Shown piece after piece: positions 50,448 through 52,258 of a DNA stretch of 64,000 bases. The stretch's first letter is position 1. Each line of letters starts with the position of its first letter. The translations under genes were made by a program, and so were the position numbers. The notes under the pieces were generated by a model, which saw only the letters and a program-made list of their open reading frames with translations, ran no database searches and had not been told where the DNA came from. The stretch is taken from the IMG/VR virus record IMGVR_UViG_3300048549_001527; one strand, given 5' to 3'. This DNA comes from a virus. Lineage: Duplodnaviria > Caudoviricetes.

Positions 50448-50690
50448 TTATTTTCTATCTTGCCTTATTTGGTTCAAAACATTTTTAAGTTTAAACACAA
50501 TACCAGTTTGTAGTGCTTCTTTAGACCAATAGCTTTCATCTTCAGTTAACGCATCAAGCGTATCCATAAGCATCATGTTTTGTCCACGTAAACCGTCAAT
50601 ATCGCTTCGTAGCATTGCCTTTTCAGATTTGTGTTGTTTGATTTCTTGCTGTAAGTAATGTACCCCAGCTTCATTTGGTTTGACTCGCAT
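50448..50690 (-). CDS. Hypothetical coiled-coil protein
   Basis: ORF coupled to upstream stop. Confidence 0.55.
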   Translation of the reverse strand: MRVKPNEAGVHYLQQEIKQHKSEKAMLRSDIDGLRGQNMMLMDTLDALTEDESYWSKEALQTGIVFKLKNVLNQIRQDRK

Positions 50691-52258
50691 CAGCCGTACT
50701 TCTCAATGAAATTGTAATCTGAAATATAAATCCATTTAATAAAGTCAACTTGGTCTTTACTGAAATCGTCTGCAGTGATTTCTTTTACTGTAAAGTTTAG
50801 TACTTTGTTTATTTTAAAAAAGTTATTGACTTCATGTTTATTAATAACTTGAAACTCTTTAAAGTTTTTAGTATCAACAAACATGCACTGCGGATGGAAA
50901 TGATGTACTTGATGCGCGCCTGATATCTTATGGAGATTTTTAAAGAACAAGTCTATTTTTTCTTGCTTTGTACACTCACCAAGGTTTTTACCAAACGAAT
51001 TAAAAATATCTTTTCCATAATCATAATATCTTTGCCCTTCGGTTAAGTATACGTTAATTAAAGAAACAAATCTTTCAACAGGATCTGTGAACACGACGAT
51101 AGGTGTACCTTTATCCTTTTTATTTTTTATGACTGCTTTATATTCTTTTGTATCTCTAAAAATTTGCTTTCGTTCAGGATGTGTTTCCTTAATTGTAACC
51201 GAACAACTTCTTGGCACTTCAAACCAAGTTTGTTTTTCATCAAGATCATATAATAAAGGCCATGAAAGTTTATTACACCAAAAGCATTCGCAAGGTGAAA
51301 ACTTAAATTCTTTAAACAGGTCTGTTTCAGGTAAAAAGAAATCTCTTAACTTCTGATTTTGCAAAAGCATAGATGGAAGCTTGGCAAGTGGATATCTTTT
51401 CAACACATGGTCTGCAAATCCGTCAGGAGCAGGTCCACCTTCAACTGGTTGTGTATCCTTTACAAATTTCTTATATGCCCCATCGTTATAACCATCTAAC
51501 GTTTTCATCCATTGGAGTTTATCAAAAGCGTGGGCAAAAGATTTGGCTTTTGTTTCACGTTGAGAATTTGTTCCCATCCATGCAAAGTGCCAACCAAGAT
51601 CTTGTATCATTTGTCCGCCGTGCATTGCAAACTGTAGCTTAAATGGCATATTGCCACAACGAATGTTTAACATGCCGCCTGACCTATTAACCTGGTGTTT
51701 AGTTGCCATAAACATAGCTCGTTGCCAAATTCTAAAGGCACCTGTAGATTTATGATATACTCTTAAATCAGCTCGGCCTTGCAAATAAACTAAAGGTATT
51801 TTAAGAATAGAGTGATTACTATTTTGTTGAACAAGTTCAGCTAACCACTTAACGTTTTTAGGATCTACGATTTCGTCTGCATCGCCATATATAAAAACAT
51901 CATCTGTATCAAAATCTTTCATACCTTCCATAACAGCATCTTTTTGTAGACGCTCGCGTACACGGCACAGTATAGATTCTAAGCTACTATTTCTACCAGC
52001 ATTTTGCTGGTCAATCGGCATGACAATCAATTCATTATCATCAGGAATATCATGCTCAATGTAAATGATTTTTTCCATAGGAAGGCCGAGGTTCCTTGCA
52101 ATTTCAAGAAACTTTCTTTCAACAGGCGCGCCGCTATGGGTCTTATTAGACTCAACGATGATAAAGTTATCAACCACATCTTTTAGCATATTAACTCGAA
52201 GCTGCAGAATTTCTTCGTTAGTCGGAGCAAAAAATGGAAAGCAATCTACAATTTTCAT
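50690..52258 (-). CDS. GT17-like glycosyltransferase fused to a sulfotransferase-like C-terminal domain
   Basis: N-term MKIVDCF.FF...E.L.LR...L..VVD.FIIVESNKTHSG, GDADEIV, GWHFAW; C-term WFEVPRSCSVTI, DPVERFVS, HFHPQ, IY.SDY. Confidence 0.7.
   Translation of the reverse strand: MKIVDCFPFFAPTNEEILQLRVNMLKDVVDNFIIVESNKTHSGAPVERKFLEIARNLGLPMEKIIYIEHDIPDDNELIVMPIDQQNAGRNSSLESILCRVRERLQKDAVMEGMKDFDTDDVFIYGDADEIVDPKNVKWLAELVQQNSNHSILKIPLVYLQGRADLRVYHKSTGAFRIWQRAMFMATKHQVNRSGGMLNIRCGNMPFKLQFAMHGGQMIQDLGWHFAWMGTNSQRETKAKSFAHAFDKLQWMKTLDGYNDGAYKKFVKDTQPVEGGPAPDGFADHVLKRYPLAKLPSMLLQNQKLRDFFLPETDLFKEFKFSPCECFWCNKLSWPLLYDLDEKQTWFEVPRSCSVTIKETHPERKQIFRDTKEYKAVIKNKKDKGTPIVVFTDPVERFVSLINVYLTEGQRYYDYGKDIFNSFGKNLGECTKQEKIDLFFKNLHKISGAHQVHHFHPQCMFVDTKNFKEFQVINKHEVNNFFKINKVLNFTVKEITADDFSKDQVDFIKWIYISDYNFIEKYG

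Follow-up and report, generated by a model that had tools for sequence, protein, structure and literature searches.

Can a single phage polypeptide both transfer a sugar and sulfate it? This question is raised by a gene in a 64,000-nucleotide stretch of DNA (the whole of it referred to below as the window) from the virus record IMGVR_UViG_3300048549_001527 (Duplodnaviria; Caudoviricetes). The window belongs to a T4-like myovirus and encodes the Gp23 capsid protein, the T4 scaffold protein, RNase H, PhoH and a class I ribonucleotide reductase (RNR). The gene, which we call GT17-ST, occupies positions 50690..52258 of the minus strand and encodes 522 residues followed by a stop codon, with no internal stops. 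Its N-terminal part is a GT17-type glycosyltransferase and its C-terminal part is a Sulfotransfer_2-like (ST-like) domain. A first-pass annotation, made from the sequence alone, had proposed that one polypeptide adds a sugar and sulfates it, supplied by a phage-encoded pair of enzymes that make 3'-phosphoadenosine-5'-phosphosulfate (PAPS). We are nearly certain of the two-domain architecture and of the folds described here. The explanation that we favour, although only by a small degree, is that GT17-ST is a soluble or cytoplasmic two-domain glycan-tailoring enzyme of an abundant, uncultured marine T4-like myovirus.

A conserved two-domain gene

Residues 1-317 (51308..52258, minus strand) make up a GT-A glycosyltransferase of the GT17 type, whose DADE site is invariant. 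The GT17 family model PF04724 matches the whole protein with 30.9 bits and residues 1-320 with 33.2 bits (cut-off 26), the match covering residues 15-140. The AlphaFold2 (AF2) model of this domain, built on 37 sequences, has a predicted local distance difference test score (pLDDT) of 93.8. Searched with Foldseek, it retrieves GT-A enzymes, SpsA being first (E 9.4e-7), with 295 PDB matches at E<=0.001; those at E ~1e-6 include SpsA, chondroitin synthases and GlcAT-P. The DADE motif (residues 126-129, nt 51872-51883, minus strand) provides the predicted DxD-type metal and nucleotide-sugar site, and its residues D126, D128 and E129 are invariant in our alignments A1 and A4. The GT17 identity initially assigned to the N-terminal part is thus upheld by both the above-threshold PF04724 match and the GT-A fold.

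The GT17 family was founded on the animal beta-1,4-mannosyl-glycoprotein 4-beta-N-acetylglucosaminyltransferase (GnT-III). The window protein shares with it the above-threshold family match, the GT-A fold, the DxD-type site and a GWH..W segment. It differs in being soluble, without a membrane anchor, in being phage-encoded and in being fused to an ST-like domain; moreover, only profile positions 85-194 of 348 are matched. Elsewhere, the GT17 domain is found either as a stand-alone protein or fused to DUF6445, TPR or methyltransferases.

All the motifs quoted in the first-pass annotation were recovered at their places when we re-derived the protein from the DNA. Besides DADE, these are GWHFAW (residues 222-227), CECFWC (residues 323-328, nt 51275-51292), the loop VPRSCSVTIK (residues 348-357, nt 51188-51217), the segment TDPVERFVS (residues 391-399, nt 51062-51088), HQVHHFHPQ (residues 449-457, nt 50888-50914) and YISDY (residues 511-515), all on the minus strand. 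The motifs from DADE to YISDY are not due to chance: they show little or no variation when 34 full-length homologs, sharing 54-73% identity with the window protein, are aligned. Conservation is about the same in the two halves (mean pairwise identity 0.64 in the N-terminal and 0.59 in the C-terminal one).

About 80 clusters of full-length GT17-ST homologs with 53-90% identity, from marine metagenomes, were retrieved when 5.8 billion proteins were searched, and near-exact copies of the window gene are present in seawater metagenomes of more than 12 studies. Because of these clusters and copies we regard the gene as common. Among 50,697 phage records, tblastn with the whole protein produced a single match, which was limited to the GT17 part, and tblastn with P0133, a canonical stand-alone member of the ST-like family, produced none. 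Megablast with the 9-kb region around the gene likewise gave no match. The record nearest to the window, G001, is a 48.6-kb fragment from which the gene is missing. A profile scan of genome contigs with alignment A2 returned only four contigs from two metagenome bins; these look like mis-binned phage DNA and give no host assignment. GT17-ST-type genes are found on three contigs (L083, L084 and L085, i.e. FZLS01000039.1, FZLS01000005.1 and FZLS01000020.1, with coverages of 88x, 67x and 5.6x) of the metagenome-assembled genome 'Rhodobacteraceae bacterium Water_Bin34'. Most likely, these contigs are phage DNA binned by mistake and provide no evidence of a cellular homolog or of a host.

The sulfotransferase-like module

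The C-terminal domain comprises residues 318-522 (50693..51307, minus strand). Its AF2 model has a pLDDT of 92.8 and a predicted template modelling score (pTM) of 0.87. In the ESM Atlas, it is similar to clusters of PF03567 (Sulfotransfer_2) with template modelling (TM) scores of 0.60-0.69. Nearly all of the first 34 rows in a Foldseek search against the PDB were sulfotransferases, but the matches were weak (E values of at least 0.034), and we base the fold assignment on VIA-align and the Atlas rather than on this search. Nucleotide kinases share the fold at lower Z. At the sequence level, an exhaustive phmmer search with the C-terminal domain alone detected 72 relatives among 1.84 billion representatives. 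Six of them (P0132, P0133, P0135, P0140, P0148 and P0154), matched at E values from 2e-25 to 2e-12, score 22.2-33.5 bits with PF03567, all above the 22-bit cut-off. Thus, by transitive homology and modelled fold, the domain is a divergent member of the Sulfotransfer_2 lineage. We file it as a divergent relative and not as a regular member because three hallmarks of the family are missing, namely a direct match to the hidden Markov model, the lysine of the 5'-phosphosulfate-binding (PSB) loop and the first arginine of the 3'-phosphate-binding (3'-PB) segment; fold and transitive homology are both present. The sulfotransferase layout recognised earlier in this part of the protein has therefore gained support from the AF2 model, the Atlas and the indirect PF03567 link. 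The relatives are mostly stand-alone proteins of about 200 residues, and their Atlas clusters are 94-100% viral; in other words, the domain belongs to an almost entirely viral branch of Sulfotransfer_2.

Two other sequence-based leads were discarded. A match of the domain to phrog_832 (E 0.0015) is weak and was regarded as chance. Profiles of alignments A2 and A3 searched against PDB chains produced no significant sulfotransferase; their best rows were a Rho-GEF, matched through a common HHFHP string, and 3-OST-3 and 3rnl at a non-significant E of 0.3-0.5. Accordingly, no alignment of the domain to a solved enzyme at the level of residues was significant.

The module starts with a CxCxxC motif (C323, C325 and C328), first described as a linker. 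We reject that view: the motif is conserved in at least 90% of the sequences in a 49-sequence family alignment and, in family members that stand alone, lies no more than ~20 residues from the N terminus, marking the start of the C-terminal module. The alignment to solved sulfotransferases starts only at residue 23-24 of the domain model and does not include the motif. Judging from these alignments, CxCxxC is a family-specific N-terminal extension of the ST-like module. One may speculate that it is a metal site, completed by one invariant histidine as a candidate ligand.

Of 64 representatives in the family table that cover both ligand sites, 47 have textbook motifs: E-I-P-K-N-G/A-S in the PSB loop, R-D/N-P-x-x-R-F-x-S in the 3'-PB segment and H-H-F/W-Y-P-Q. 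The PSB lysine is present in these 47 canonical representatives. In the clade of the window protein, the PSB-like loop instead has an invariant PR (PRSCSVT, with Arg350 in place of the lysine). Similarly, the first 3'-PB arginine (position 391) is always replaced by Thr or Ser in this clade; in the window protein it is Thr391, as had been noticed at the outset. Members of a neighbouring clade have the PSB lysine together with Asp, Asn, Ser or Lys at position 391, and Asp at this position is found in three relatives. Arg396 does not vary anywhere in the family; Ser399 is constant in the window clade and is retained by most members outside it. His452 and His453, candidates for a general base and/or metal ligand, are also invariant across the family. 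Overall, the window clade shows no variation in the PSB, RF.S, HH and Y..DY motifs, which are conserved family-wide. With these motifs kept and the C-terminal domain as conserved as the glycosyltransferase domain, its function appears to have been maintained.

The loss of Arg391 is accompanied by a change at another site, position 474, which is a lysine in the window protein (nt 50837-50839, minus strand). Lys or Arg occupies this position in 97% of window-type sequences and in 62% of other members lacking Arg391. None of the 50 members with Arg391 has a basic residue there; most of them have Ile, Met or Leu. When 94 domains are placed on a tree, both events, Arg391 being lost and position 474 becoming basic, map to one derived clade. 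Within this clade, P0129 has Arg391 and Ile474 and its sister P0128 has Asp391 and Lys474, so that the rule is kept. In the AF2 model of the domain, positions 391 and 474 each come directly after a beta-strand (domain strands 70-73 and 153-156), and the ends of these strands would correspond to the sheet edge where nucleotides bind in this fold. The co-variation suggests that Lys474 is a relocated phosphate-binding residue. If so, a residue considered indispensable for binding PAPS appears to have been traded in this family for a basic one at another position.

It is instructive to compare the window protein with known sulfotransferases. Unlike regular Sulfotransfer_2 members such as heparan sulfate 2-O-sulfotransferase (PDB 3f5f), it is not matched by the family model, has the PSB arginine, the 3'-PB threonine and the additional CxCxxC extension, and its ST-like domain is only ~205 residues long and belongs to an almost exclusively viral family. 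The combination of predicted activities resembles that of NDST1, the heparan sulfate N-deacetylase/N-sulfotransferase (PDB 9f6z and 1nst): by analogy, the window protein may be viewed as a carbohydrate sulfotransferase joined to a glycosyltransferase, just as NDST joins a deacetylase and a sulfotransferase. However, there is no sequence similarity between the two (10% identity), and the NDST base is Glu, not His. Also comparable are bacterial fusions of Glyco_transf_7C with Sulfotransfer_2, an ESM Atlas cluster from Bacteroidota that is also the closest named structural neighbour of the C-terminal domain (TM 0.69). They likewise join a glycosyltransferase to Sulfotransfer_2, but their glycosyltransferase is of the GT7 type and they are cellular rather than viral; they are themselves uncharacterised.

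The ST-like module combines with several fusion partners besides GT17, namely TPR and DUF6445 in P0124, and FkbM and Methyltransf_24 methyltransferases plus DUF6445 in P0129. An Atlas cluster of viral UDPG_MGDP_dh proteins (533 aa) that matches the ST-like fold with a TM of 0.61 is possibly another such fusion. DUF6445 (PF20043) lies downstream of the ST-like domain in long viral proteins (P0124:388-608 and the C-termini of P0128 and P0129) and downstream of GT17 in other proteins. It has an H-x-D ... H pattern like that of 2-oxoglutarate/Fe(II) dioxygenases, which recalls the dioxygenase-sulfotransferase operons of Iyer et al. 2010.

Proposed function and its alternatives

Sequence and models suggest that the phage probably builds sulfated sugars during infection. 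In the mechanism that we propose, the GT17 domain would transfer a sugar from a nucleotide sugar made by neighbouring genes, and the C-terminal domain would transfer sulfate from PAPS onto a glycan hydroxyl (O-sulfation). Arg350 would take over from the usual PSB lysine, the 3'-phosphate would be bound through Ser399 and Lys474 now that Arg391 is missing, and either His452 or His453 might act as the base. The protein would be made early or in mid-infection and would work in the cytoplasm, with PAPS coming from the host or from a phage pair consisting of an APS-kinase-like protein and a nucleotidyltransferase (APS, adenosine 5'-phosphosulfate). As the acceptor we would favour a lipid-linked or host envelope glycan, followed by a phage or host glycoprotein. 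A host envelope glycan has been proposed for pelagimyophage glycosyltransferases (PMC7029224), and collagen-like or tail-collar proteins are the predicted targets of dioxygenase-methyltransferase-sulfotransferase operons (Iyer et al. 2010, PMC2938197). We lean slightly toward the C-terminal domain being an active sulfotransferase. That both domains act on one glycan is a more tentative idea, which we would place somewhat short of even.

The latter idea is affected by two relatives, L072 and L077, in which the same locus is found and whose RNR is 88-92% identical to that of the window. In L072 (L072:9998-10597), DUF454 is followed by a stand-alone 199-aa ST and a cell-wall hydrolase, and there is no GT17, epimerase or methyltransferase. 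In L077 (L077:7443-10642), a 312-aa open reading frame (ORF) without a family, Methyltransf_23 and an epimerase are accompanied by a stand-alone 203-aa ST. The ST module is thus constant at this locus and GT17 is optional, and therefore the claim that the ST acts on the sugar added by GT17 is weakened, as is the original formulation that the protein adds a sugar and sulfates it. The region between DUF454 and the cell-wall hydrolase is a small hypervariable glycan cassette. At ~60% identity, a relative has the DUF454, epimerase/dehydratase, 192-aa ORF and GT17-ST cassette in synteny with the window.

Several further observations weigh against the reading of GT17-ST as a PAPS-dependent enzyme that glycosylates and sulfates one glycan. 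Apart from the fact that, given the stand-alone ST in L072 and L077, the two activities need not act on one glycan, neither PF03567 nor any other Pfam model matches residues 310-522 or 330-522 even at E<=10. The PF03567 comparison recommended in the first-pass annotation thus fails for the window protein and succeeds only for its relatives. There is no NCBIfam sulfotransferase match to the C-terminal domain either. Two canonical PAPS-phosphate ligands are replaced (Lys by Arg350 and Arg by Thr391), and the proposed compensation by Lys474 is deduced from sequence and strand positions. The 391/474 pattern has one exception, P0130 (Asn391 and Ile474), and rests on only two or three independent changes. 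Finally, ATP sulfurylase (PF01747) is absent from the complete 221-kb genome of a relative (G002) that has both small genes of the putative PAPS pair.

The two activities might be unrelated in their targets: both domains would be active, their fusion would be a convenience of co-expression, and the ST might sulfate a protein, for example a fibre, collagen-like or tail-collar protein that is hydroxylated or glycosylated. The stand-alone ST with different neighbours in L072 and L077, the fusions of the ST family to DUF6445 and methyltransferases, and the operon prediction of Iyer et al. 2010 (PMC2938197) all agree with such a division. However, the GT17-ST fusion is stable across the ~80 clusters, the gene resides in an early/middle block away from fibre genes, and both the possible UDP-sugar dehydrogenase fusion and the galactosyltransferase-ST fusion found as a structural neighbour point to sugars, so that we consider separate acceptors unlikely. 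A different donor or chemistry is another alternative. The C-terminal domain would then be catalytic, using a donor without a 3'-phosphate (e.g. APS) or carrying out some other P-loop-type group transfer on a glycan. This could account for the replacement of Arg391 throughout the window clade, including an acidic Asp in three relatives, and of the PSB lysine by Arg, and the fold is common to nucleotide kinases at lower Z. Nevertheless, Ser399 and Arg396 are kept, and a basic residue appears at position 474 where Arg391 is lost, which fits retained binding of an anionic group. In addition, a phage APS-kinase-like gene would be pointless if APS were the donor, and we know of no APS-dependent member of the sulfotransferase fold. 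We therefore regard an altered donor as improbable too.

Less probable still is that the C-terminal domain is a pseudo-enzyme, i.e. that it is not catalytic but binds a glycan or nucleotide so as to position or regulate the GT17 domain. The substitution of two canonical catalytic-site ligands and the lack of a direct family match would be expected of such a module, but the invariance of the His pair, the PSB loop, the RF.S core and Y..DY in the window clade would not. The domain also persists as a stand-alone protein in close relatives, unlike a mere accessory of GT17, and the correlated change at positions 391 and 474 looks like the repair of a binding site. This returns us to the preferred reading, a glycan-tailoring enzyme with a glycosyltransferase and a sulfotransferase domain.

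Animals, algae and some bacteria are known to have sulfated glycans. Our literature search found no paper on a GT17-ST fusion and no demonstrated phage sulfation, in agreement with the earlier remark that no characterised phage glycan-sulfation system is known; according to a recent paper on marine phages, it is unclear what role phage sulfotransferases play (PMC10580990). Should GT17-ST be active, the ability to sulfo-glycosylate would be widespread among oceanic T4-like phages and could bear on superinfection exclusion, receptor masking or the chemistry of the virion surface.

Putative donor supply, gene neighbourhood and expression

The genes that were thought to supply PAPS overlap each other on the minus strand. 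One of them, P0193 (32747..33175, 142 aa), encodes an APS-kinase-like P-loop kinase with a shortened lid, and the other, P0194 (32332..32754, 140 aa), a nucleotidyltransferase with HxGH and ISxTxxR motifs (NMNAT/cytidylyltransferase-like). P0193 matches PF01583 with 30.2 bits (cut-off 21.1), but the match is limited to residues 3-83 and generic AAA/P-loop families score alike; with the NCBIfam APS-kinase models it reaches 18-27 bits, compared with cut-offs of 127-163. Beyond the P-loop, the motifs FNADKIR and FVCP can be recognised by eye, and much of the lid is missing. Atlas clusters of its relatives are 89-100% PF01583. P0194 shows weak matches, all to NMNAT/cytidylyltransferase-type models, and none to ATP sulfurylase. 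The designation 'PAPS pair' thus has to be relaxed, as the kinase is only APS-kinase-like and its partner is an HxGH protein of the NMNAT/cytidylyltransferase type, not an ATP sulfurylase. A single PHROG covers both proteins, one in each half, and in many phages they are fused into one protein. Genes of these two types belong to a very large viral family.

A connection of the pair to sulfation is supported by its distribution in isolate phages. Four of the five isolates with the kinase (NC_010811.2, KU682439.2, OR548257.1 and NC_042344.1) also carry a match to a sulfotransferase family, although five phages are a small sample. In phiRSL1, a Sulfotransfer_2 match of 76.9 bits lies ~5 kb from the kinase within a glycan cluster, and in DLP_6 the Sulfotransfer_2 match has 35.5 bits. 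In the other two, the match is to Sulfotransfer_4, is located two genes upstream of the kinase and corresponds to an ORF annotated as a hypothetical protein: Clavibacter phage 33 scores 22.4 bits (22.9 with frame neighbours; cut-off 22.8) and Xylella phage Sano 19.9 bits, below the cut-off. The fifth, RsoM2USA, has no sulfotransferase-family match. Among 14 control genomes, Sulfotransfer_2 is found in none and Sulfotransfer_4 in one, below the cut-off; the other two families searched match in two or three of the controls, and neither matches in the phages. We had also considered that the pair is unrelated to sulfation, as the fused gene of Sano is annotated among DNA-metabolism genes, but this idea was overturned by the family searches of whole records. 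The co-occurrence does not show that P0194 makes APS, and a NadR-like role in NAD salvage is possible. Looking in the opposite direction, the 77% complete G003 has a stand-alone ST and no kinase pair in its assembled part; G004 and G006 are fragments.

It is tempting to go one step further and imagine abundant marine T4-like phages running self-contained sulfation. This would involve a virus-specific ST, with Lys or Arg at position 474 in place of Arg391, fused to or located beside glycosyltransferases and methyltransferases, together with a non-canonical, miniature PAPS-making pair, in which PAPS would come from a lid-less APS kinase and an NMNAT-derived adenylyltransferase. Taken jointly, these propositions are doubtful. 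If true, they would amount to the first case in which a phage is demonstrated to drive the sulfation of a glycan or glycoprotein, and could alter host surfaces and the ocean sulfur flow on a large scale.

The kinase pair is adjoined by a gene for a GapR-like DNA-binding protein (31988-32332, minus strand; PF10073, E 3e-31). GapR is an alphaproteobacterial nucleoid protein. The GapR-like gene fits an alphaproteobacterial host, which is likewise hinted at by a 5-aminolevulinate (ALA) synthase gene.

The surroundings of GT17-ST include sugar-nucleotide genes, namely those for a phosphomannomutase, a cytidylyltransferase, a short UDP-glucose-dehydrogenase-like protein, an epimerase/dehydratase and a GT1 or GT4 enzyme. 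The UDP-glucose/GDP-mannose dehydrogenase-like protein (47885-48676, minus strand; 263 aa) consists of a partial N-terminal and a central domain, with no match to the C-terminal domain. Abutting the start codon of GT17-ST is a gene for a 191-aa protein (52259..52834, minus strand), which is probably a Methyltransf_24/CmcI-type S-adenosylmethionine (SAM)-dependent methyltransferase. The leads to this assignment are a weak Pfam match (E 0.14) and Atlas hits to PF13578 clusters; BLASTP against the Methyltransf_24 region of P0129 was not significant. Next to it is the gene for the 341-aa NAD-dependent sugar-nucleotide epimerase/dehydratase (52831..53856, minus strand; PF01370, E 3.5e-46 and PF16363, E 2.2e-44). 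Together with GT17-ST, these two genes make up a cassette that is conserved in relatives.

The genes from nrdB to a small ORF after GT17-ST are tightly packed or overlapping, and no T4-type late promoter TATAAATA is found on the minus strand upstream of GT17-ST. Because of this packed nrd block without an upstream late promoter, expression of GT17-ST in the early or middle phase is likely. Parts of the gene are matched, with no mismatch, by contigs from the RNA libraries of three studies; as DNA carry-over is possible and the contigs give neither level nor strand, we do not count them as proof of transcription. The nearest TATAAATA (50402-50409, minus strand) is downstream of GT17-ST and heads the gene for a SleB/Hydrolase_2 cell-wall hydrolase (49857-50384, minus strand), which directly follows the GT17-ST block. 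This arrangement suggests that the transcription programme switches at the hydrolase promoter. A near-consensus sigma-70-like site (50444-50416) overlaps the same late promoter.

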